A stretch of DNA of 37,403 nucleotides from Limisphaerales bacterium (lineage in GTDB: Bacteria; Verrucomicrobiota; Verrucomicrobiia; Limisphaerales; UBA11358), in NCBI GenBank assembly GCA_043749955.1, contig JAYVCM010000134.1, positions 1-37,403 of the forward strand. The letters are read 5' to 3'. The notes below the pieces were generated by a model. The model was not told where the DNA came from. It worked only from the letters and a program-made list of their open reading frames with translations, and did no database searches. A program made the translations under genes and the position numbers. Position 1 is the stretch's first letter. Each line of letters opens with the position of its first letter. Of the stretch, positions 119-32,951 are shown in pieces.

Positions 119-3100
119 ATGATTTCTCCCATGCGCCGCCGAAATTTTTCATCATTGCTGCGTCATGGCTTTGCCGTTGGCCTCCCGGCCTGGCTCCTTT
201 TTTTCTCCGCCCCAAAATCCGCGGCCGCGCCGGTGGATTATCTGGTGGACAAGTGGGACACGGAAGACAACCTGCCGAGCAGCACGGTGACGTCCATCGC
301 GCAGACGCCGGACGGGTATCTGTGGGTGGGAACTTACAACGGGCTGGCGCGGTTTGACGGCGCACGGTTCGAGACGTTTGATCCGGTCAACCAGCCGGCG
401 CTGGGGCAGGCGCGGGTGCAGGCGCTGTTTCTCGACGCGAACGGCACGCTCTGGATCAACACGTTTCGCGGCGGGCTGACGTCGTATCGCCAGGGCGTGT
501 TCCGCAACGAATGGCCGAACCAGCCGGCGTTTGACCTGCACACCACGCTGGTGTCGTCGTCGTCCAACCAGATCACCTTTGTCACGCAGTTCGGCGAGGT
601 GCTGCGGCGCGACCTGGCCGCGACCAATGCCGGCTGGAACATTGCTGCGCCGCCGCCGGAGACGCGGCCGATTTTTCAATGTGCCGACGGCGCGGGGCGG
701 CTGTGGTTTCTGGCGCGCGACCGGCACATTTTACAATTCAGCGATGGCCGGTTCCAGGCGCTGGCGGACGACGGCGGCTTGGCGGGCAGCCGGATTTACA
801 CGCTGGTGGCGGATGCGGCGGGAAAAATCTGGGCGGGGGCGGAAAATGAAATTGCCGTTTGGGACGGCCGGCTGTTCCTCGCCATGACGCCGACGAACGG
901 CGCGACGGACATCCAGCCGCAGTCGCTTTTTCCGACGCGGGCCGGGGCGATGTGGGTGCTGGACGGCGAACGGCTGCGCAAAATGTCGGGCCGCGAATGG
1001 GTGGCCGAAGCCGCGCCGTGGCGCGGACTGCTGGGCGCGGCCTCGGGCCGCGCGATGGGCGCGCATGAGGATCGTGACGGCGGCTGGTGGTTTAATCATT
1101 ACGGCAACGGCTTGTTTCACATCACGCCGGAGGGACAGTTTCAGCGGCTGACCTCGCGGGAAAATCTGCCGAGCGACCGCGTGGGCGCGTGGTTCCAGAG
1201 CCGTGACGGGGGCGTCTGGGCGGGGGTGGACCACGGCGGGCTGGTGCGGCTGCACGACCGGCGGTTTCAAGTGATCGGCGTGAACGAGGGCCTGCCCGTG
1301 CGCACGGCGCTGTCCGTCTGTGAAGATGCGGAGGGTGTGATTTGGATCGGCACGGCGGGCGGCGGCCTGTGCCGCTGGACCAACGGCGTGGTCACGCGTT
1401 TCGCCGTCGGCCGGAGCGTGGCGGCGGATTTTGTTTTTGCCATTGCGCCCCGGCCGGGCGGCGGCGCGTGGTTGAGCGCGGCGGCGGGCGAGGACCTTTA
1501 CCAGTTTCAAAACGGCCAGGTGCGCCGCGCGTCGTGGGAGCTGCACGGCATCAAATCCATGCTGACCGACCGGCGCGGGCGCGTGTGGATGGGGACGAAG
1601 AACGGGATCGGTTTTTCCGACGGGAACGAGCGGCATATTTTGGGGACGAATGAAAGCGGCACGTTGCCGGCGGTGCGCGCGCTGGCGGAGGCGCCGGACG
1701 GAACGGTCTGGGCGGGCGCGGACAACGGCACGCTGTTCCGCTGCGAACCGGACAAGCTGACCGCGTTCCGGCCGGAGGACGCGCTGGCGGAGCAGCCGAT
1801 TTATTCGCTGACGGCGGATGCGGAGGGCGTGGTGTGGGCGGGGACGTTTCGCGGCGGGCTGCTGCGTTTCAAAAACGGGGAATTTTCGCGCATCACGGCC
1901 AGGCAGGGCTTGCCGGCGGATATCATCAGCCAGATTTTGGAAGACCGGCGCGGGCGGCTCTGGCTCGGCACACATCAGGGAATTTATTGCGTGGCCAAAG
2001 CCGCGCTGGACGCCATCGCCGATGGACGGGTCCCGCTCGGAGCGGGACTGGATTATGTGGCCTACGGGCGGCACGACGGTCTGCCCGCGCTGGAATGTTC
2101 CGACGGCTACCAGCCCGCGAGCTGGCGCGGCGCGAATGGAAAATTATGGTTCGCCACCGTCAGCGGCGTGGTGGCCATCAACCCGGAGGAAGCCACGGCC
2201 AAGTCGCCGCCGCCGCCGGTCATCATCGAGGAACTGCGCGTGGACGGCGAGGTCGTGAAGCTGCACGAGGAGGGAGGAGGGAAGATGGAAGATGGCCCGC
2301 GTCCGCGCACTTATCCAGCCTCCAGCCTCCACCCTCCATCCGCTCCCATCCGCATCCCGCCGGGACGCAAGCAGTTGGATTTTCGTTTCACCGCGTTGAG
2401 CTTTGACGCGGGCGACAAGGCGCGGTTCCGCTACCGGGTGGACGGGCTGGACACGGACTGGGTGGACGTGGACACGCGGCGGACGTTGCAACTGCGCAAC
2501 CTCGCGCCGCGCGAATACCGGCTGCGCGTCATCGCCTGCAACAGCGAAGGCGCGTGGAATCTGGACGGCGCGGCGCTGACGTTCGCGGTCCGCCCGTTTT
2601 TTTACCAGACGCTGGCGTTCCAGATCATCGCCGGGGTGTTGCTGGTGGCGGCGGTTTCCTTCGGCGTGCGCCGCGCGGCCACGCGGAAATACCGCCGCAA
2701 GCTGGCGCGGCTGGAACAGCAGCACGCCATCGAACGCGACCGCGCCCGCATCGCCAAGGACATCCACGACGACGTCGGCGCGGGCCTGACGCAGATCACG
2801 CTGCTCACCGAACTCGCGCGCCGCGAACCGGAGCAGACGGACGCGAACCTGGAGCGCATCTCCGATTCCGCGCGCACCCTGACCAAGGCGATGGATGAAA
2901 TCGTGTGGGCCGTGGATCCGCAGCACGACACGCTCGACGGCCTGGTGGATTACATCTCGGCCTATGCGGAAGATTTTTTGCGCGTGGCCGGCATCCGCTG
3001 CCGCATGGATTTCCCGATGAACCTGCCGACGACCCGCGTGGAGGCCGAGCTGCGCTACAATCTGTTTCTCGTCGTGAAGGAGGCGTTGAACAACATCGTC

Positions 3101-3460
3101 AAGCACGCGCGCGCGGATGAAGTCTGGCTGCGGCTGCACCTCGGCCCGAAATCTTTCACGCTCGCCATCGAGGACAACGGCTGCGGGCTGGGGGCGGACG
3201 ACGAGTTGCGAGCTGGTGAGTTGAGAGTTGAGGGTTCGGACGCTCAACTCTCAACTCACGGAACTCTCAACTCCAAAGCCGCCCGCCGCCTCAACTCCGG
3301 TTCGGGCCTGGAGAACATGAAGAAACGGCTGGCCGCCGTGGGTGGCCGCTGCGAGATCCACAGCGATGCGGGACGCGGCACGCGCGTGGAGATGACCGCC
3401 GCCCTCCGCCCTGGGGCATCGCCAGTTATGGCGATTGGCGGCAGTGAAACACCGGGGTAG
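119..3460 (+). CDS. Sensor histidine kinase with periplasmic two-component-regulator propeller repeats and Y_Y_Y domain, one TM, HisKA_3-type dimerisation domain and HATPase domain
   Basis: ORF 101..3460. First ATG is at 119, followed by a hydrophobic signal/TM segment. Repeated 'DG.LW.GT..GL' propeller motifs. TM segment FQIIAGVLLVAAVSF. H-box ERDRARIAKDIHDDVGAGLT. N-box VKEALNNIVKHA. G-boxes DNGCGL ... GSGLENMKKR. Start codon is uncertain (TTG 101, ATG 119 or ATG 131). Confidence 0.9.
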   Translation: MISPMRRRNFSSLLRHGFAVGLPAWLLFFSAPKSAAAPVDYLVDKWDTEDNLPSSTVTSIAQTPDGYLWVGTYNGLARFDGARFETFDPVNQPALGQARVQALFLDANGTLWINTFRGGLTSYRQGVFRNEWPNQPAFDLHTTLVSSSSNQITFVTQFGEVLRRDLAATNAGWNIAAPPPETRPIFQCADGAGRLWFLARDRHILQFSDGRFQALADDGGLAGSRIYTLVADAAGKIWAGAENEIAVWDGRLFLAMTPTNGATDIQPQSLFPTRAGAMWVLDGERLRKMSGREWVAEAAPWRGLLGAASGRAMGAHEDRDGGWWFNHYGNGLFHITPEGQFQRLTSRENLPSDRVGAWFQSRDGGVWAGVDHGGLVRLHDRRFQVIGVNEGLPVRTALSVCEDAEGVIWIGTAGGGLCRWTNGVVTRFAVGRSVAADFVFAIAPRPGGGAWLSAAAGEDLYQFQNGQVRRASWELHGIKSMLTDRRGRVWMGTKNGIGFSDGNERHILGTNESGTLPAVRALAEAPDGTVWAGADNGTLFRCEPDKLTAFRPEDALAEQPIYSLTADAEGVVWAGTFRGGLLRFKNGEFSRITARQGLPADIISQILEDRRGRLWLGTHQGIYCVAKAALDAIADGRVPLGAGLDYVAYGRHDGLPALECSDGYQPASWRGANGKLWFATVSGVVAINPEEATAKSPPPPVIIEELRVDGEVVKLHEEGGGKMEDGPRPRTYPASSLHPPSAPIRIPPGRKQLDFRFTALSFDAGDKARFRYRVDGLDTDWVDVDTRRTLQLRNLAPREYRLRVIACNSEGAWNLDGAALTFAVRPFFYQTLAFQIIAGVLLVAAVSFGVRRAATRKYRRKLARLEQQHAIERDRARIAKDIHDDVGAGLTQITLLTELARREPEQTDANLERISDSARTLTKAMDEIVWAVDPQHDTLDGLVDYISAYAEDFLRVAGIRCRMDFPMNLPTTRVEAELRYNLFLVVKEALNNIVKHARADEVWLRLHLGPKSFTLAIEDNGCGLGADDELRAGELRVEGSDAQLSTHGTLNSKAARRLNSGSGLENMKKRLAAVGGRCEIHSDAGRGTRVEMTAALRPGASPVMAIGGSETPG
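3216..3259. repeat. Heptamer-arm hairpin (AGTTGAG/CTCAACT family), copy inside the kinase CDS
   Basis: Perfect 17-bp arms GTGAGTTGAGAGTTGAG (3216..3232) and CTCAACTCTCAACTCAC (3243..3259) around the loop GGTTCGGACG. Further CTCAACT-like units extend to about 3299. Translated in frame as GELRVEGSDAQLSTHGTLNS. Confidence 0.9.
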
Positions 3461-3543
3461 ATTGTGCGCATGACACCACTCCCTTGCCGCCAAGGATTTT
3501 TCCCTGCGCCGGACTTTCGCTGCGGTTTTTCAATTCAAGCCGC

Positions 3544-4203
3544 ATGAGCATCTCCGTTTCCATTGTCGAGGACGACGCCCGCGTGCGGGCCAGCCTGTCC
3601 CGGCTAATTGACGGCGCCGCCGGCTACAGTTGCGTGAGTAACCATTCCTCCGCCGAGGATGCGTTGCGGGAAATCCCAAAGTTCAAGCCGAACGTGGTGC
3701 TGATGGACATCAACCTGCCCGGCATCAACGGCGTGGAATGTGTGCGCCAGCTCAAGCCGCAGCTCTCCGGCACGCAGGTCATCATGCTCACCGTATATCA
3801 GAACACGGAACACATCTTCAACGCCCTCGCCGCCGGCGCCACCGGTTACATGCTCAAGCAGACGCCGCCGGACGAGTTGCTCGCCGCCATCAAGGACGTG
3901 AACGCCGGCGGTTCGCCCATGAGCGGCCACATCGCGCGGAAAATCGTGCAGTCCTTCCAGTGCGTCGCGGCGGCGTCGCCCGAATCGCAAAGCCTTTCCC
4001 CGCGCGAGGCGGAAGTGCTCGCCCTGCTGGCCAAGGGATTTCTTTACAAGGAAATTGCCGAGGCGATGAAAATCACCTACGCCACTGTGCATACCCACAT
4101 CCGCCACATCTACGAGAAGCTCCATGTGCGTTCGCGGACGGAGGCCGTGGCGAAGCATCTCGGCGAGAGCCGTCCCCGCCCTGCACTGGCCGCATCACCC
4201 TGA
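3544..4203 (+). CDS. NarL/FixJ (LuxR-type) response regulator, REC plus HTH_LuxR
   Basis: ATG at 3544 gives MSISVSIVEDD, a typical REC N-terminus. Phospho-acceptor context VVLMDINLPG. C-terminal LSPREAEVLALLAKGFLYKEIAEAMKITYATVHTHIRHIYEKLHV matches the LuxR HTH. Lies directly downstream of a HisKA_3 kinase. Confidence 0.92.
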   Translation: MSISVSIVEDDARVRASLSRLIDGAAGYSCVSNHSSAEDALREIPKFKPNVVLMDINLPGINGVECVRQLKPQLSGTQVIMLTVYQNTEHIFNALAAGATGYMLKQTPPDELLAAIKDVNAGGSPMSGHIARKIVQSFQCVAAASPESQSLSPREAEVLALLAKGFLYKEIAEAMKITYATVHTHIRHIYEKLHVRSRTEAVAKHLGESRPRPALAASP

Positions 4204-18549: not shown

Positions 18550-19470
18550 TTATTTGCCGCTCGTTCGCGCGATTATGATTCTGGCGCGGTGAGAGTAGTC
18601 CTCCCGCACGGCTTCGACAACCCACTTTTCACTTTCAAAGATTTTTTTTATGGCGTCCGCCTGGCCGTCGCCGAATTCCACCATGATTTTTCCGTCCGGC
18701 TTGAGGAATGTTTTGGCCTCCGCCGCGAGCTTTCGGTAAAAATCCAGACCGTCCGCCCCGCCATCCAGCGCCAGCCGCGGGTCAAAGTCTCGGACTTCGG
18801 GATCCAGCGTGGCGATCTCGGCGGAGGGAATGTAGGGCGGGTTGCTGACGATCAAATCAAAGCGTAGTGGCACAGGCATCTTGCCTGTGAGTTCATTCTT
18901 TGAAACACACAGGCTAGAAGCCTGTGCCACTACCGGCAACGCCGCAAAACCATCGCCGGCTAAAAATTCAATTCTCTCCCCGACGTTGTTTCGCTCGGCG
19001 TTTTCTTTCGCCAGCGCCAGGGCTTCCGTGGAAATGTCCGTGGCAAAAATCTTTGCCTGCGGACATTTCGCCGCGATGGCAATGGCGATGCAGCCGCTGC
19101 CGGTGCAGAAGTCCAGGCAAGTTGAGAGTTGAGAGTTGAGAGTGGAGAGAAACTGCCAGCCAAGCTCCGCAAGCAATTCTGTTTCTGGACGCGGAACAAG
19201 CACTTGGCGGCTCACAGCAATTTCAAATCCGCAAAACGAGGTGGAGCCAATGATGTGCTGGAGCGGTTCGCGCAGGCCGCGCCGCTTGACGAGTTCACGC
19301 AGCCCGTCCGTTTCCGCCGCCGTCAGCGCGCGGTCGAAGTTCAGATACAATTTCATGCGCGGCATCTTGAGCAGGTGCGCAAGGAGCAGCTCCGTTTGGA
19401 GGCGCGGCGACTCGACATTTTTCTTGCCGAGAAAATCGGTGCTTTTCTGAATCGCTTCGAGGACGGTCAT
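18550..19470 (-). CDS. prmC: Release-factor glutamine N5-methyltransferase (HemK/PrmC), carrying two in-frame repeat insertions
   Basis: MTVLEAIQKSTDFLGKKNVESPRLQTELLLAHLL... is the HemK N-domain. SAM motif LDFCTGSGCIAIAIA. NPPY motif DLIVSNPPYIPS. The ATG at 19470 overlaps the stop of the upstream ORF6N gene (ATGA). The 110-aa upstream extension in the track is not credible. Confidence 0.92.
   Translation of the reverse strand: MTVLEAIQKSTDFLGKKNVESPRLQTELLLAHLLKMPRMKLYLNFDRALTAAETDGLRELVKRRGLREPLQHIIGSTSFCGFEIAVSRQVLVPRPETELLAELGWQFLSTLNSQLSTCLDFCTGSGCIAIAIAAKCPQAKIFATDISTEALALAKENAERNNVGERIEFLAGDGFAALPVVAQASSLCVSKNELTGKMPVPLRFDLIVSNPPYIPSAEIATLDPEVRDFDPRLALDGGADGLDFYRKLAAEAKTFLKPDGKIMVEFGDGQADAIKKIFESEKWVVEAVREDYSHRARIIIARTSGK
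18864..18933. repeat. Family G palindromic element (GTAGTGGCACAGGC ... GCCTGTGCCACTAC) inside prmC
   Basis: 70-nt element with 13-nt terminal inverted repeats and two internal hairpins (CACAGGC-N5-GCCTGTG). Second copy at 33771..33855 in fabD. Translated as VVAQASSLCVSKNELTGKMPVPL. Confidence 0.85.
19120..19147. repeat. Solo arm of the AGTTGAG/CTCAACT heptamer family inside prmC
   Basis: AGTTGAG x3 plus AGTGGAG in tandem on the + strand. No complementary arm nearby. Read on the coding (minus) strand as LSTLNSQLST. Confidence 0.8.
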
Positions 19471-26706: not shown

Positions 26707-26763
26707 TTGCTGATCGCCGTCCCGTCATCTGGCACGCCGCGTGCAGAGACAATTTTTGAAACC

Positions 26764-28872
26764 ATGAAACGCTTCCGCAACCTCCCGATCCAGCAGAAAA
26801 TGCTGGTGATGACCCTGCTCATCTGCGGTGCGGTCCTCCTGGTCGCCATCGTGGCGCTCTTCGTTTTCCAGGTTCTGAACTTCCGCTCCAATTTCCAGCG
26901 CGACACCTCCACGCTGGCGGACATCATCGCCAACCAAAGCAACGCCGCGATGTCGTTTAAGGATGTCGAGACCGCGACCGAGGTGTTGGGATCCCTGCAG
27001 GCCAAACCCACGGTGTTGTCCGCAGCACTCGTTTTACGCGACGGATCGGTTTTCGCCCACTACGGAATCCAGGAGCAACCCGACGCGCTGGCAAAATTTC
27101 CGCGGCCGGGTGAATACCGTTTCACCGGCGGCCATCTGCTGTTCACGCAGCTGGTCATAGTGAAAAAGGAGCAGGTGGGCACGCTTTACCTGCGGACGGA
27201 TTATCAGCGGACGTTTCTGGAACTGCTCGGTTTCTACGGACAGGTCATCTTGGGCGTCACGGTGGTGTCCATCGCCCTGGCGGTGTTTCTTTCCGGGCGG
27301 TTGGGGCGCACGATTACGGAACCGGTGCTCCAACTGGCGCAGGTCGCCAAAATTGTCGGTGAAAAAAAAGACTACTCGGTGCGGGCGGTCGTGAGCAACC
27401 GGGGCGACGAACTGGGCCGGCTCGCGGAATCGTTCAATGAGATGCTGGGCCGCATCGAAAGCCAGGACGCCGCGTTGAGTTTGTCGCAGCAGAAAATGGA
27501 GGCGTTGATCCACTCGATTGACGGCATCGTCTGGGAACGCACGCCGGACACGTTCGAGTTCACTTTTATCAGCCGCCAGAGTGCCATGATGCTGGGTTTT
27601 TCGCCGCAGGCGTGGCTGGACCGGCCGAAATTCTGGGAGGAAAAACTGCATCCGCAGGACGCCGCCAAGGCGATTCAGACGGGTCACGAGATGGCGATGC
27701 GGGGTGAGCCGTATAGTTATGAATACCGGATGCTCGCCGCCGATGGCCGGACGGTCTGGATCCGGGAGAGCGGCATGGTGCTGGTGGAGAAAGGCCGGCC
27801 CGTGGCCATGCGCGGCATTTTCCTGGACATCACGCAGCAAAAATTGGCCGCCGAACAATTGGACAAGCTCAACCGGCAGTTGATTGACACCTCCCGAAAC
27901 GCCGGCATGGCCGACGTGGCCACGGGCGTGCTGCACAATGTCGGCAATGTGCTCAACAGCGTAAGCGTCTCCGCCACGGTGGTGGGCGACCGGTTGCGCC
28001 GCTCCAAGGTCACCAATTTGCGCCGCGCCACGGCCATGATGCGTGAGAAAAACGGCCACCTCGCCGAATTCTTGACGAACGATCCCAAGGGCAAACTGCT
28101 GCCGGATTATTTCAGCACGGTGGCGGAGCAACTGGCCGCCGAGCAGACGGAGTTGATCACGGAAATGGATTCGGTCGGCCAGCACATCGAGCACATCAAG
28201 GAGATTGTGGCGATGCAGCAGAACTACGCCAAGGTTTCCGGCGTCTATGAGAATCTGGCGCCGCAGGAGCTGGTGGAAGATGCGTTGCGCATGAATGTGG
28301 CGGCGTTCGAGCGGCATCGCATCGAGCTGGTGCTGGAGTTCGCCGAGAACCTGCCCAAGGTCTGCGTGGACCGGCACAAGTTTTTGCAGATCCTCATCAA
28401 CCTCCTCCGCAACGCCAAGCATGCCATGGAGGATGGGTGCGAGGAAGACCGGCGCATGGTCATCCGGGTGGGCCTGGCGTCGCCTGGCCGGGTGAAGATT
28501 GTCGTCAGCGACAATGGCCTGGGAATTCCGGCGGAGAATCTCAACAAGGTTTTCAACCACGGTTTCACGACCAAGAAAGACGGGCACGGCTTCGGGCTGC
28601 ACAGCGGGGCCAATGCCGCCAAGGAAATGGGCGGCAGCCTTACGGCCCACAGCGACGGCCCCGGCAAGGGCGCGGAATTCACGCTGGAACTGCCGACGAG
28701 CCAGTTGAGAGGTGGTGAGTTGAGAGTTGCGCAGCCAGTTGAGAGTTCGGACTCTCAACTATCAACTCACAAAACTATCAACTCATCGGAACCCTCCAGC
28801 TCTCAACTCTCAACTCATAAACCTCTCAACTCGCAGACAACCCTCAACTCACCCAGCTCTCAACTCTTATGA
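26764..28872 (+). CDS. Sensor histidine kinase (CHASE8-like periplasmic domain, HAMP, PAS, kinase core) with a repeat-encoded C-terminal tail
   Basis: ATG at 26764 gives MKRFRNLPIQQKMLVMTLLICGAVLLVAIVALF. HAMP segment ITEPVLQLAQVAKIV...ELGRLAESFNEML. PAS segment IDGIVWER...YEYRMLAADGRTVWI. H-box VATGVLHNVGNVLNS. HATPase segment NLLRNAKHAM...DNGLGIP...GHGFGLH. The last 55 aa or so are encoded by the CTCAACT repeat. Confidence 0.9.
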   Translation: MKRFRNLPIQQKMLVMTLLICGAVLLVAIVALFVFQVLNFRSNFQRDTSTLADIIANQSNAAMSFKDVETATEVLGSLQAKPTVLSAALVLRDGSVFAHYGIQEQPDALAKFPRPGEYRFTGGHLLFTQLVIVKKEQVGTLYLRTDYQRTFLELLGFYGQVILGVTVVSIALAVFLSGRLGRTITEPVLQLAQVAKIVGEKKDYSVRAVVSNRGDELGRLAESFNEMLGRIESQDAALSLSQQKMEALIHSIDGIVWERTPDTFEFTFISRQSAMMLGFSPQAWLDRPKFWEEKLHPQDAAKAIQTGHEMAMRGEPYSYEYRMLAADGRTVWIRESGMVLVEKGRPVAMRGIFLDITQQKLAAEQLDKLNRQLIDTSRNAGMADVATGVLHNVGNVLNSVSVSATVVGDRLRRSKVTNLRRATAMMREKNGHLAEFLTNDPKGKLLPDYFSTVAEQLAAEQTELITEMDSVGQHIEHIKEIVAMQQNYAKVSGVYENLAPQELVEDALRMNVAAFERHRIELVLEFAENLPKVCVDRHKFLQILINLLRNAKHAMEDGCEEDRRMVIRVGLASPGRVKIVVSDNGLGIPAENLNKVFNHGFTTKKDGHGFGLHSGANAAKEMGGSLTAHSDGPGKGAEFTLELPTSQLRGGELRVAQPVESSDSQLSTHKTINSSEPSSSQLSTHKPLNSQTTLNSPSSQLL
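28703..28867. repeat. Expanded AGTTGAG/CTCAACT heptamer-arm element at the kinase / hybrid-kinase junction
   Basis: Core hairpin AGTTGAGAG-TTCGGA-CTCTCAACT at 28737..28760. About 4 AGTTGAG units to the left and about 8 (C/A)TCAACT units to the right. Runs up to the ATGA start/stop overlap at 28869..28872. Confidence 0.85.
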
Positions 28873-30923
28873 CGCCCAACCATCGCATCCTGCTCGTGGA
28901 CGACAACACGAGTATCCACGCCGATTTCCGAAAAATCCTGTGCCCGGACATTTCCGGCTCGGCCGTCATCAATGAGATGGAGGCGGCCTTGTTCGAGGAC
29001 ACCAAGCCGGCGGCGGCGCATACCAGTTTCGAGCTGGACTCGGCGTTTCAAGGGCAGGAGGCGCTGGAGATGGTCAAGCTGTCGCTCGCCGAAAACCGGC
29101 CTTACGCGATGGCCTTCGTGGATGTGCGGATGCCGCCGGGCTGGGACGGCATCGAAACCATTGCCCGCATCTGGGAAGTTTATCCGGAAATCCAGATTGT
29201 CATCTGCACGGCCTACTCGGATTACTCCTGGGAAGACATGCGCAACAAAGTCGGCCAGCCCGACGGCCTGCTCGTCCTCAAGAAACCATTCGACAACATC
29301 GAAGTGCAGCAGATCGCCCACGCGCTGACAAAAAAATGGCTGCTGAATCATCAGTCGGCGCTGCAGATCGCGGATCTGGCGCGGGCGAATGAAAAGCTGG
29401 CGTTGTCGGAGGAGCGGTTCTCCAAGGCGTTTCATGAAAGCCCGCTGCCCAGCGGCATCCAGAGTTTTCCCGACCAACGTTTCGTGGACGTGAACCAGCG
29501 CTTCGCCGAGGTGGCCGGTTACAAACGCGAGGAGATGCTCGGCCGCACGGCGGCGGATTTGTTCCTGTGGGAAAAACCGGCCGCCGCCGATTTGTGGTAT
29601 GAACGCCTGTTGCTGAACGAACTGGTGCGGGATCAGGAGGCGAAGATTCGTCACCAGGCCGGTGACTTGCGGGAGCTGCTGGTCTCGCTGTCGCCCATCG
29701 CGTTGGGCGGCTCGCCCCACATGCTGCTGCTGGCCCAGGACGTCTCGGAGCGCGCGCTGTTGGAGCGGCAGTTGCGGCAGGCGCAGAAGATGGAAGCCAT
29801 TGGCCAGCTGGCCGCCGGTGTGGCGCATGATTTTAACAACATCCTCACGGTGATCCAAGGTCACGCGGGTTTGCTGCAACAGACGCTCAACATCGCCGAC
29901 CCGCAGACCCGGTCCTTGGATCAGATTTCCAAGGCGTCCAACCGCGCCGCCGCGCTCATCCGCCAGTTGCTCATGTTCAGCCGCAAGCAGGTCATGCAGT
30001 TTCGGCACTTGGACATGAATGACACTCTGCGCAACGCGATCAAGATGCTGGAACGTCTCGTGGGCGAACATGTGCAGATTGAATTTCACCCCTCGGCAGC
30101 TTTGCCCGCGGTGCATGCGGACTTGAGCATGATTGAACAAATCGCCATGAATCTGGCGGTCAACGCCCGCGATGCCATGCCCAGTGGCGGACGGATCACG
30201 ATCTCGACCACGCGGGAGTCGGTGCACCGCGCGCCCACGCCGATGGATCCCGAACCCCGCGACGGCGATTACATCTGCCTGACGTTCAGCGACACCGGCA
30301 CCGGCATGGACACGCAGGTGCTCGGCCGGATCTTTGAACCCTTTTTCACCACCAAGCCGGTCGGCAAGGGCACGGGTCTCGGGTTGTCCACCGTGTTCGG
30401 CATCGTGCGCCAGCACGAGGGCTGGCTGGAAGTGGAGAGCAAACCGAATCTGGGCACGACGTTTCGCGCCTATTTTCCCGCGAGCCAGCAGGCGGCGGAA
30501 AAAATCGAGCTGGTGATTGATTCCACTTTGAGCAAGGGCCGGGAAACGGTGCTCGTGGCGGAAGATGAAGAACCGTTGCGCCAGATGGTGGTGCAGGTGC
30601 TCCGCATCCAGGGCTACACCGTGCTGGAGGCCGTGTCCGGCGCGGATGCGCTCGAGGTGTGGGAACGCGCCAACCGGCCGGTGGACTTGCTGCTGACCGA
30701 CATGGTGATGCCCGGCGGCATCATGGGCAGCGAACTGGCGGAACGGCTCTCGAACCAGTGCCCGCACCTGAAGGTGATTTATACCAGCGGCTACAGCCCC
30801 GGCATGGCGGGCCGCGACGCGTCGCTGCTGGAAGGCCGCAACTTCCTGCCCAAGCCCTACTCGATCGGCAAACTCGCGCAGTTCGTCCGCGAATGTCTCG
30901 ACGTGCCGGTGAAGCAAAACTGA
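28869..30923 (+). CDS. Hybrid sensor histidine kinase / response regulator (REC-PAS-HisKA-HATPase-REC)
   Basis: N-terminal REC ILLVDDN...FVDVRMP. PAS region. H-box AIGQLAAGVAHDFNNIL. HATPase NLAVNARDAM...DTGTGMD...GKGTGLGLS. C-terminal REC VLVAEDEEP...LLLTDMVMPG. Confidence 0.92.
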   Translation: MTPNHRILLVDDNTSIHADFRKILCPDISGSAVINEMEAALFEDTKPAAAHTSFELDSAFQGQEALEMVKLSLAENRPYAMAFVDVRMPPGWDGIETIARIWEVYPEIQIVICTAYSDYSWEDMRNKVGQPDGLLVLKKPFDNIEVQQIAHALTKKWLLNHQSALQIADLARANEKLALSEERFSKAFHESPLPSGIQSFPDQRFVDVNQRFAEVAGYKREEMLGRTAADLFLWEKPAAADLWYERLLLNELVRDQEAKIRHQAGDLRELLVSLSPIALGGSPHMLLLAQDVSERALLERQLRQAQKMEAIGQLAAGVAHDFNNILTVIQGHAGLLQQTLNIADPQTRSLDQISKASNRAAALIRQLLMFSRKQVMQFRHLDMNDTLRNAIKMLERLVGEHVQIEFHPSAALPAVHADLSMIEQIAMNLAVNARDAMPSGGRITISTTRESVHRAPTPMDPEPRDGDYICLTFSDTGTGMDTQVLGRIFEPFFTTKPVGKGTGLGLSTVFGIVRQHEGWLEVESKPNLGTTFRAYFPASQQAAEKIELVIDSTLSKGRETVLVAEDEEPLRQMVVQVLRIQGYTVLEAVSGADALEVWERANRPVDLLLTDMVMPGGIMGSELAERLSNQCPHLKVIYTSGYSPGMAGRDASLLEGRNFLPKPYSIGKLAQFVRECLDVPVKQN

Positions 30924-30929
30924 CGGACC

Positions 30930-30998
30930 GTTGAGAGTTTTATGAGTTGAGAGTTGAGGGTTCGGACTCTCAACTCTCAACTCAAATAACTCTCAACT
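30930..30998. repeat. Heptamer-arm hairpin (AGTTGAG/CTCAACT family) between convergent genes; plausible bidirectional terminator or RNA-stability element
   Basis: Perfect 15-bp arms GAGTTGAGAGTTGAG (30944..30958) and CTCAACTCTCAACTC (30969..30983) around GGTTCGGACT, plus partial units on both flanks. Confidence 0.85.
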
Positions 30999-31928
30999 GG
31001 CTCTGGCTTTCAGCCGCGCGGATGAAATTTCCGGTGGATCTCCCGCAGCCGGCTGCCCGTGACGTGCGTGTAAATCTCCGTCGTGCCGATGCTCGCATGG
31101 CCGAGCAGTTCCTGGATCGCGCAAGTCCGCGCCGTGCTCCAGCAGATGCGTGGCAAAACTGTGCCGCAACATGTGCGGCGTGATGTTGCGCCCGATGCCT
31201 GTGCGGCGGACGCGGTTCTTGATGTGCAGCCAGAGCGTCACCGCCGCGAACGGCGTTCCGCGCTTCGTCAAAAAAACATTCGCCGGAGATTTCGGCGTGA
31301 CGAGTTTCGGACGGCCGGTCTCGATGTAACGGTTCAACGCCGCGACCGCTTTTTTTCCCACCGGCACCACGCGCTCTTTGTTGCCCTTGCCGATGACGTT
31401 GATGAAGCCCGCGTCCAGATGCAACTGCTCCAGCCGGATGTTTTTCAGCTCGGACAATCGCAGGCCCGAGGCGTAGGCCAGTTCCAGAATCGCCTGGTCG
31501 CATAAATTTTCCCTGGTCTCCGGCAATTCCGGCGCGAGCAGTTTTTTTATTTCGTCGTTCGACAGCGCCTTGGGCAGACGTTTCCAGCGGCGCGGCAGCG
31601 AAAGATTTTCCGCGAGGTTCGCCGGCAGCAGTTTTTCGTTCTCGGCGAATTTGTAGAACGACCGCAGCGCGGCGATTTCCAGATACACGCTTTCGCCGCT
31701 CAAGCGCAGGGTGGATCCCCTGGGTGCGTCGGCGGGCGGGCGGGCGCGCTCGTGTTGCAGGAACGCCATGAGATGTTTTAGCTCGACCGATTTCCAGTCC
31801 GTGAGAGTTTGCGTCGCCGCCCACGCGGTGAATTTGCCGAGCAGAGCGGCGTAGGTCCTGGCCGTGTTGTCCGCCTGCCCGCGCTCGTGGCGCAGGCATT
31901 GCAGAAAATCTTCCACGAGGTTTTGCAT
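30993..31928 (-). CDS. xerD: XerD/XerC-family tyrosine recombinase, apparently frameshifted before the catalytic His/Tyr block (possible pseudogene)
   Basis: ATG at 31928 gives [30 protein letters not shown], the N-terminal SAM-like domain. ...[21 protein letters not shown] then loses the frame. The family sequence [35 protein letters not shown] continues in another frame and ends at 31010. Confidence 0.8.
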
Positions 31929-32017: not shown

Positions 32018-32202
32018 GGTAGGGCGGCGCTGCCGCGCCGCCCAAATTTCCCCGCCAGAACAAGCGCAGCGATGTTCTGGCCTGCGGGATTGACGCGCGC
32101 TGGTTCCGTCCAGCCACGCTGCGCGGGCTGACGGGGGAGAAATGGGCAGAGCGGCAGCTCTGCCCTGCCAAAATTGGTAGGGCGGCGCTGCCGCGCCGCC
32201 CC
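32018..32202. repeat. REP cluster (BIME-like) downstream of the RAYT gene
   Basis: Palindromes GGGCGGCGC-TGCC-GCGCCGCCC (32021..32043 and 32179..32201) and GGGCAGAGC-GGCA-GCTCTGCCC (32144..32165). Confidence 0.85.
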
Positions 32203-32206
32203 AATT

Positions 32207-32686
32207 TCAATCCGCCGACCAACGGATTTCATGCACGCGTCCGAAATAAGGCCAGTCCTCCGGTCGCTCCGCCAGCTTGTGCCGGACGGGATTGTCCCGG
32301 ACGTATTGCCGTTTCTGCGCGTAACTTTCGCCATCCCGCAGGCGATGATGAAAACCGCCGTCTTGAAAAATTCCCGTGTCCGGCTGCGACTTGGCCAGGC
32401 GGTCTTTCCAAAAGGCGATCCCGCGTTCGATGGTGAATTTCCAATCCCGCGGCGCGCAGAACAGATGCAGATGATCGGGCAGCAGCAGATAATCACTGAC
32501 CAGCCAGGCGGTGGCCTTGTGTTCCCAAATCTCATGCAGCGCCCGCTGGACGGATGCCTGCGCCAGCCAGCGGTCCCGTTTCGCGGTGCAGACGGTGAGA
32601 AAAACCCAGTTCGGACCGCCGGCGGAAACGTGAACGCCCTTCGCCGGCGTGTGTCGTCCCGGTTCGTGGAAAGGGATTTCGGACAT
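32207..32686 (-). CDS. REP-associated tyrosine transposase (RAYT; IS200/IS605 TnpA-like Y1 HUH enzyme)
   Basis: HUH motif LLLPDHLHLFCAP. C-terminal catalytic Tyr context RQYVRDNPVRHKLAERPEDWPY. 159 aa. Flanked on both sides by REP palindromes. Confidence 0.85.
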   Translation of the reverse strand: MSEIPFHEPGRHTPAKGVHVSAGGPNWVFLTVCTAKRDRWLAQASVQRALHEIWEHKATAWLVSDYLLLPDHLHLFCAPRDWKFTIERGIAFWKDRLAKSQPDTGIFQDGGFHHRLRDGESYAQKRQYVRDNPVRHKLAERPEDWPYFGRVHEIRWSAD

Positions 32687-32762
32687 GGCGAAATTTTTAG
32701 CGGAAGGCGGACGAAGGGAAAAGTTTTTTCGTCACGCGTTCAAAGCGCGTGACGGGAGAAAT

Positions 32763-32951
32763 GGGCGGAGCGGCAGCTCTGCCCTACCAAATGTTGGTGG
32801 TAGGGCGGCGCTGCCGCGCCGCCCAAACTTTCCCGCCGGAACCAGCGCAGCGAAGTTCCGGCCTTCGGGTTTGACGCGGACTGATTCCGTCAGCATCGCT
32901 TCGCTGGCTGACGGGGGAGAATGGGGCAGAGCGGCAGCTCTGCCCTGCCAA
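32763..32951. repeat. REP cluster (BIME-like) upstream of the RAYT gene
   Basis: GGGCGGAGCGGCAGCTCTGCCCT (32763..32785), GGTAGGGCGGCGCTGCCGCGCCGCCC (32799..32824) and GGGCAGAGCGGCAGCTCTGCCC (32925..32946). Confidence 0.85.

Follow-up and report, generated by a model that had tools for sequence, protein, structure and literature searches.

The window analyzed here, a 37,403-nucleotide stretch of a Limisphaerales genome (contig JAYVCM010000134.1), begins with a gene for a HisKA_3-type sensor histidine kinase. A 72-nt palindromic element (positions 3203-3274) built of AGTTGAG/CTCAACT heptamers is inserted in frame in the part of this gene that encodes the ATP lid, and it is one copy of a repeat population dispersed throughout the genome. 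We consider it about 75% probable that the element is a tolerated insertion, comparable to the Rickettsia palindromic elements (RPEs), in a permissive lid loop that has been a recurrent slot for hairpins. On balance, functional consequences for the kinase or its mRNA are less likely than a near-neutral insertion.

Results

The ATP lid contains an inserted hairpin

Pfam matches along the protein follow the order Reg_prop propeller repeats, Y_Y_Y, HisKA_3 (PF07730, 5.4e-09) and HATPase_c (PF02518, 1.1e-14). This is a membrane sensor kinase in which, as in the HisKA_3/HATPase_c family generally, a phosphoacceptor domain is followed by a GHKL ATPase with N, G1 (DxGxG) and G2 (GxGL) boxes. The start codon is uncertain (101, 119 or 131; database cluster members begin at 119 or 131). 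An earlier note, made from the letters of the sequence, had quoted a linker of 36 residues between the G1 box DNGCGL and the G2 box GSGLENMKKR, and translation returned exactly that. In eight orthologs from the same genus (63-74% identical in the region), across whose alignment the kinase boxes are invariant, the linker is 13-18 aa, and alignment of the DNA placed 72 extra bases in the window between GGGGCGGACGAC and AAAGCCGCC. The DesK structures (PDB 3EHF and 3GIG) share the same DHp and catalytic domains, with the H, N, G1 and G2 boxes in order. Their lid is ~9 residues long, in contrast to 36 in the window kinase, 24 of them repeat-encoded, and the alignment of DesK to the window kinase breaks exactly at the insert. 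Among the 120 best homologs of the catalytic region, 104 have lids of at most 22 aa (a count made with a wider regular expression), with a median of 17.

The earlier note had proposed that a repeat hairpin encodes about 25 extra lid residues between G1 and G2, and had named comparison with orthologs as a check. The insert proved to be 24 aa, and the repeat-encoded residues are found in none of the eight congeners, in neither DesK structure and in none of the 104 short-lidded homologs, so that relatives without the repeat have shorter lids rather than lids of the same length. As with RPEs, the insertion is in frame in an otherwise intact gene and is lacking from the orthologs. The sequence CTCAACTCC (3290-3298) lies outside the insert and represents native codons for the conserved R-L-N-S (R-L/I-x-S) ahead of G2; RLNSG also occurs in one ortholog (G015), but there it is encoded by other codons (CGGCTCAATTCG). 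An AlphaFold2 model of the DHp-CA part had predicted local distance difference test scores (pLDDT) below 50 at model residues 168-200, which comprise the insert (E168-S191) and the remaining lid, and scores of 85-94 over the remaining catalytic core. The insert is thus modeled as disordered.

The inner arms of the element, which had been read as a perfect 17-bp hairpin, are indeed exact reverse complements, and an outer stem encloses them to give a two-tier hairpin (Table 1). Each arm of the element consists of about four AGTTGAG/CTCAACT heptamers. The computed RNA fold reached -31.7 kcal/mol (z -8.0) for the 44-nt core and -45.1 kcal/mol (z -8.5) for the whole 72 nt; the hairpin is beyond chance. 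The inner arms pair perfectly largely because both are arrays of one heptamer, and perfect pairing alone is therefore no evidence of selection for the stem. Of the six frames of the kinase element a single one is free of stops, and the gene is read in that one.

The element is not an assembly artifact. Contigs assembled independently from three sediment metagenome runs had no differences over 2900-3600. A contig of 784 nt from a different study, ~90% identical, retains the element with only small indels that jointly preserve the frame, and among the differences listed for this relative, which are an incomplete set, none falls in the arms.

Table 1. Positions of the kinase, its lid element and related features in the window
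Feature	Position	Strand	Basis
Sensor histidine kinase gene	131..3460	+	ORF list, Pfam, cluster members P0123 and P0124
G1 box DNGCGL	3173..3190	+	Translation; D, G, G invariant in ortholog alignment
Native lid, first part (GADD)	3191..3202	+	Aligns with ortholog GAND, SATG etc.
Inserted palindromic heptamer element, 72 nt, 24 codons (ELRAGELRVEGSDAQLSTHGTLNS)	3203..3274	+	Orthologs without it, family alignment, fold
Outer left arm GAGTTGCGAG, pairs with 3264-3273	3203..3212	+	Fold
Inner left arm GTGAGTTGAGAGTTGAG	3216..3232	+	Direct reading, repeat finder
Loop GGTTCGGACG, typical of the AGTTGAG/CTCAACT family	3233..3242	+	Family copies
Inner right arm CTCAACTCTCAACTCAC	3243..3259	+	Direct reading, repeat finder
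Outer right arm CTCTCAACTC	3264..3273	+	Fold
Native lid, second part (KAARRLNS)	3275..3298	+	Ortholog comparison
G2 box GSGLENMKKR	3299..3328	+	Translation, ortholog alignment
LuxR-type response regulator gene, cognate (Response_reg and GerE)	3544..4203	+	Pfam
Solo four-unit array inside prmC just before SAM motif I, frame LSTLNSQLST on the CTCAACT strand	19120..19147	-	15-mer search
Expanded family copy, 3' end of second kinase ORF (26707..28872)	28703..28872	+	15-mer search, family alignment
Canonical intergenic copy, -46.8 kcal/mol, stops in six frames	30929..30998	+	Fold, frame check

The element belongs to a dispersed family

We searched the 3.9-Mb, 540-contig metagenome-assembled genome of this member of the Verrucomicrobiia (G000). 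The 15-mer GAGTTGAGAGTTGAG, with up to two mismatches allowed, matched the window 12 times against 0.05 expected, at four loci (3218, 19119, 28717-28866 and 30944). Because GAGTTGAGAGTTGAG is a mirror repeat that reads identically both ways, the backwards-read control, which equals the real count, is uninformative. Genome-wide, the AGTTGAG/CTCAACT family occupies ~50 loci, either as solo arrays of about four heptamers or as foldbacks that run from an AGTTGAG array through a loop, often GGTTCGGAC, into a CTCAACT array. Intergenic copies can be aligned to the kinase copy along its entire length, and the one at 30929-30998 folds in the same way; like an RPE, the kinase copy is a member of a dispersed family with hairpin potential. 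Canonical intergenic copies have stops in all six frames.

The same 15-mer was found in 30 of 61 genomes of the genus, with 1-15 matches each compared with 49 here. Outside the genus it occurred in 15 of 66 sampled genomes of the class and in 3 of 134 genomes from other classes of the phylum. Four genomes of the same class (G139, G160, G163 and G238) contain one long tandem array of the heptamer (7-9 overlapping 15-mer matches) instead of dispersed copies.

Heptamer arrays are abundant and follow strand and frame rules

To place this family in context, perfect tandem arrays of at least three units were counted over the whole genome, without bias over units. There were 230 arrays of period 7, compared with 21, 20 and 12 for periods 5, 6 and 8, an excess of about tenfold. 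They fall into 27 unit families, of which CTCAACT is the fifth largest with 14 arrays, after ACGCATC (60), AACATCC (49), AACATTC (32) and AGGATGG (17). Inverted doublets predominate, as they do among REPINs (hairpin-forming doublets of repetitive extragenic palindromes, REPs): 100 of the 230 arrays have an inverted partner nearby, and many of the resulting foldbacks have energies of -50 to -90 kcal/mol. Their loops are variable. Arm order is fixed within each of the five largest families, by 127 hairpins to 1, which suggests that whole foldbacks are copied and not assembled by chance from solo arrays. A simpler rule, under which the G-rich arm would always precede the other, does not fit the AACATCC and AACATTC families (81 hairpins). 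In-situ expansion of a microsatellite was ruled out, since the family is dispersed, the copy number stays near four and 7 is not a multiple of 3.

About one third of the arrays are translated. With a codon-usage model trained on long open reading frames (ORFs), 69 of 217 scorable arrays, including 17 of 43 in the CTCAACT family, lie in open, coding-like frames and hence in predicted coding sequences. Genes that carry them in frame include those for aconitase, dihydroorotase, ThiE, Mfd (twice), AddB, HrpB, a DegT aminotransferase and prmC. Pfam searches confirmed ten hosts, and the insert mostly falls inside the domain envelope. An (AGTTGAG)n array has TGA in all three frames and a (CTCAACT)n array has no stop, and for this reason all nine perfect arrays in coding sequences have the CTCAACT sense. 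Where one strand has stops, the sense bias is complete (ACGCATC 21:0, CTCAACT 9:0), whereas families that are stop-free on both strands are read either way (3:5, 5:4 and 4:3). Such a pattern of strand and frame would result if elements inserted in both orientations and selection then kept only those that left the gene intact.

Two further explanations for the lid element are that it is part of a contingency locus switched on and off by slippage of the heptamer tract, or that it is an assembly artifact. Gain or loss of one heptamer would indeed shift the frame of the kinase. However, three independent assemblies are identical, contigs of eight runs contain no unit-number variants at the locus (although rare variants are lost in assembled contigs), the unit number remains about four in the arrays of different species, the hosts include essential housekeeping genes, and the sole allele difference found, described below, keeps the frame. 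We regard both explanations as barely credible.

The lid is a recurrent slot for hairpins

Expanded lids of 25-40 aa were present in 16 of the 120 best homologs. Identities at an offset of seven residues were found in 11 of these 16 and in 1 of the 104 short lids. We examined homolog DNA at three loci (L055, L056 and L057), all of which have the same order of kinase and regulator genes as the window. At L055 (71% identical) the lid contains an AGTTGAT/ATCAACT foldback of -57.7 kcal/mol, and at L056 (73% identical) it contains a GGTCAGA/TCTGACC-type foldback of -50.5 kcal/mol. These data show that the lid of this kinase family has been occupied repeatedly by hairpins with different heptamer units.

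Aconitase provides a parallel. In this genome one aconitase loop (G000 C310:1452-1479, locus L015) contains (CTCAACT)4, and an almost identical array occurs in a genome of another family. In a third genome, of another genus, the position is taken by an equally long, perfect (ATCCGAA)4; ATCCGAA is itself dispersed, with 106 matches in that genome and 21 in this one. Elsewhere (loci L016-L028) the loop has decayed or different 7-periodic sequences, and in seven the site is empty and 8 residues shorter. A tree of the aconitase fragment, which bears on whether there was one old insertion or several independent ones, had no well-supported branches.

The hairpin tip differs between near-identical strains

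The 90%-identity protein cluster of the kinase has three members, one of which is the window protein. Over ~1100 residues the other two differ from it at one place, where ESRSERDQ replaces EGSDA-Q. The corresponding DNA, at L057 on a contig of a 99.9%-identical strain from another sample, has 2 differences from the window in 3232 bases upstream and none in 498 downstream, and at the apex the 18 nt of GGTTCGGACGCTCAACTC (3233-3250) are replaced by the 24 nt of TCCCGCTCGGAGCGGGATCAACTT, an in-frame gain of 6 nt. With such flanks and a changed apex, the hairpin tip must have changed far faster than its surroundings. The L057 hairpin has two stem mismatches and a different loop, so neither stem nor loop is strictly kept.

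The L057 apex contains CCCGCTCGGAGCGGG, a palindrome that forms the core of a different REP-like family, which has a GTAG tag and 54 copies in this genome. From its sequence, the apex difference appears to be due to acquisition of another dispersed palindrome. No donor copy for the L057 apex sequence was found in this genome. Complete elements of the GTAG-tagged family (for example at C10:8659 and C113:1404) have the structure GTAGGGCAGGCTTACAG-core-TTCACGGGGCTTACCAGCCCC; the L057 hairpin loop contains the core alone.

No heptamer arrays lie close to Y1-transposase-like genes

REPINs are mobilized by REP-associated tyrosine transposases (RAYTs) (Bertels and Rainey 2011, PMC3116915), and a REPIN or miniature inverted-repeat transposable element moved by a known transposase (a RAYT or an insertion sequence) was considered as an origin for the lid element. 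As in a REPIN, the repeated unit is a hairpin-forming inverted doublet, accompanied by singlets, by clusters and by insertions into or next to existing elements; fixed arm polarity suggests copying of whole hairpins; and the genome encodes six PF01797 (Y1_Tnp) genes and a RAYT-like ORF at 32207-32686, which is not among the six matches of the PF01797 genome search. But the defining link to a flanking RAYT was looked for near heptamer arrays and not found: no array lies within 1.5 kb of any of the seven genes, against 1.4 expected, and these genes are flanked by palindromes of other kinds. No GTAG or CGTC head is present in the kinase element or in the family consensus. No target-site duplication was detected at the flanks of seven aligned copies, and a non-exhaustive search at repeat clusters retrieved no parent transposon or insertion sequence with matching ends. 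The clusters on C105, C232 and C258 contained ordinary genes and a tRNA array, with no transposase that could be a master gene. We therefore think it very unlikely that the lid element was moved by a RAYT or insertion sequence.

The flanks of the RAYT-like ORF (within 32018-32951 of the window) contain GC-rich composite palindromes that are unrelated to the heptamers.

Relation to known repeat systems

Two systems of small repeats in cyanobacteria offer a comparison. The short tandemly repeated repetitive (STRR) heptanucleotide sequences, reportedly described by Mazel et al. in 1990, and the 'very small mobile repeated elements' (small dispersed repeats, SDR) of Nostoc, which Elhai et al. are said to have reported in 2008, were both reportedly described mainly as intergenic. 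The arrays of this genome resemble STRR and SDR in that several families of 7-nt tandem arrays are dispersed in one genome (the 230 arrays in 27 families above) and in that tiny palindromes are nested in hairpins. They differ in phylum, in being translated in one third of cases and in being paired in long foldbacks of fixed polarity.

RPEs are in-frame palindromic repeats (Ogata et al. 2000, as reviewed in PMC10969869 and PMC3733652). The likeness is a dispersed palindromic family whose members are inserted in frame in many unrelated genes, at sites that the protein fold allows and without loss of gene function, and which also has non-coding copies. RPEs, however, are ~100-150 bp long, lack tandem heptamers and occur in obligate intracellular alpha-proteobacteria, whereas the kinase element has 72 nt (solo arms are ~28 nt), belongs to one of many heptamer families and is found in a free-living Verrucomicrobium. 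Size and heptamer composition thus set it apart from RPEs, to which sequence homology was not searched and would not be expected. Closer in phylogeny are the intragenic GTAG/CGTC-tagged REPs and REP dimers, which are most numerous in the verrucomicrobium Opitutus terrae (Di Nocera et al. 2013, PMC3733652). These are also short hairpin repeats and head-to-head dimers that encode 20-30 aa within known genes, but the kinase element is untagged and its arms are tandem heptamers, although a GTAG-type family does exist in this genome. The kinase element acts like an RPE or REP, as a tolerated passenger, without belonging to either class: it has no tag, no RAYT link, another size and heptamer arms.

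Other family copies in the window and genome

The window contains three further family loci (Table 1). At the array site in prmC, which resembles the aconitase loop in its behavior, relatives have the decayed versions TFNLQPS, TPNSQLS and TCHSSLA. A second loop of this protein, before NPPY (18864-18933, minus strand), has repeat-derived peptides that differ by species and is empty in three. The expanded copy at 28703..28872 forms the last ~55 codons of its kinase ORF, and the TGA overlaps the ATG of the next gene; the contig of a relative likewise runs into a family element after this kinase. The canonical copy at 30929..30998 begins 6 nt past the stop of ORF 28869..30923. A contig comparison over 28300-31300, although noisy, showed elements at 28703 and 30929 in relatives of roughly 85-90% identity as well.

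Elsewhere in the genome, a second palindromic CTCAACT-family element is in frame at C258:2640-2706 (AELRVESGGVESFALNPQIPGSQL), in the linker that joins the HATPase_c domain of a hybrid kinase to its receiver domain. This foldback and the tail of kinase 26707..28872 share the ELRVE frame of the window kinase insert. The gene for the transcription-repair coupling factor Mfd has two separate in-frame CTCAACT arrays (C283:1742-1786 and 2160-2187). Six tRNA genes (Asn, Arg, Pro, Glu, Ala and Gly) lie on the minus strand at C105:300-1610, where CTCAACT-family foldbacks adjoin tRNA-Asn and tRNA-Gly and fill the Arg-Pro spacer. Among the classifiable intergenic copies, 79 of 86 lie between co-directional genes. 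Given this position and their presence in tRNA spacers, the intergenic copies are probably transcribed.

Discussion

A possible role of the hairpin as RNA or DNA

The -45 kcal/mol stem lies ~200 nt upstream of the kinase stop codon. If the hairpin were retained for its structure, for example as a site of mRNA processing or stability, a translational pause or a protein-binding site, it would tune expression of the last 70 codons of the kinase and of the downstream response regulator. The great stability of the structure, the probably transcribed settings of the intergenic copies (which exactly fill spacers in the tRNA array), the fixed polarity of the arms, the conservation of the 15-mer across the class and the lack of listed arm differences in the ~90% relative, within that incomplete set, are all consistent with such a role. 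However, a promoter and terminator scan of 2900-3700 did not call the hairpin, which has no T-run (GGAACTCTCAAC follows the stem) and is not terminator-like. An Rfam 15 scan of 3100-3400, with E up to 10, returned only generic miRNA-like hairpins below threshold (15-28 bits against cut-offs of 61-110). In addition, many unrelated heptamers share the same architecture, which argues against one sequence-specific partner, and the L057 allele tolerates stem mismatches and a different loop. A function at this level is unlikely.

A possible role of the longer lid

Alternatively, the longer lid may be adaptive, altering nucleotide binding or the balance of kinase and phosphatase activities, or the lid may be a site at which diversification is selected. 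Lids are expanded in 13% of homologs, by different inserts; the frame is kept in the ~90% relative; and near-clonal strains have alleles that differ in frame. Yet the peptide is dictated by the only open frame of the DNA repeat, the insert is modeled as disordered, the same repeats are in frame in housekeeping enzymes and also occupy spacers, and 87% of homologs do without an expanded lid. This makes an adaptive protein feature improbable, and somewhat more so than a role of the nucleic acid hairpin.

A probable tolerated insertion

Several observations pointed us instead to a tolerated rather than purpose-built insert: copies of the repeat in spacers and in other proteins, an open frame that is the only one available, the modeled disorder of the inserted residues and the missing T-run. 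The element would have arrived or been copied by a mechanism that works on hairpin-forming DNA independently of RAYT genes. Insertion into a gene would usually be lethal. The kinase copy may have survived owing to the nature of the lid as a disordered surface loop, to an element length divisible by three and to the use of the single stop-free frame of the six. Given a permissive loop, a suitable length and an open frame, the 24 additional residues probably do little more than extend a floppy loop, as near-neutral passengers. If autophosphorylation or the mRNA were affected, for instance through the ribosome pausing or RNase targeting that the earlier note raised, this would be a side effect and not a design.

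Some results weigh against the view of the element as a tolerated insertion. The traces expected of a mobile element were missing in the mobility searches above, with respect to proximity to Y1-transposase-like genes, target-site duplications and a parent transposon. For junk DNA, the occurrence of the 15-mer in 15 of 66 sampled genomes of the class is unusually broad, and could point to a function or to horizontal transfer. That the lid has been occupied repeatedly could reflect selection for lid variability and not mere tolerance. Finally, the ~90% lineage keeps the element in frame with perfect inner arms, which could mean that the hairpin or the peptide is maintained.

Significance

In-frame 'selfish' repeats are already known from Rickettsia and from the REPs of Opitutus. 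The repeats described here take a different and unusually regular form, with four heptamers per arm, many unit families, fixed polarity and translated copies in ~70 genes of one free-living genome. In the kinase, different hairpins have independently come to occupy one functional loop in different relatives, and two genomes that are 2 bases apart in 3.7 kb differ by a replacement of the hairpin tip that looks templated. The locus is thus suited to measuring the rate at which such elements change, to finding the agent that copies them and to assessing how much a loop of a catalytic domain can tolerate. As a caution, repeats should be checked before lid length in this kinase family, or loop insertions in other enzymes of such genomes, are taken as functional signatures.

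More broadly, and tentatively, the heptamer-armed foldbacks may represent an undescribed self-renewing class in the Verrucomicrobiia that is copied or rewritten by a hairpin-directed process without a flanking transposase. Tolerant loops, among them the ATP lid of this kinase and the aconitase loop, would be slots that are refilled in frame with heptamer units that vary by lineage, and that are edited at the apex even among near-clonal strains. We consider this possible but doubtful. If it is true, kinase lids would as a by-product diversify at the level of strains, which could alter signaling.

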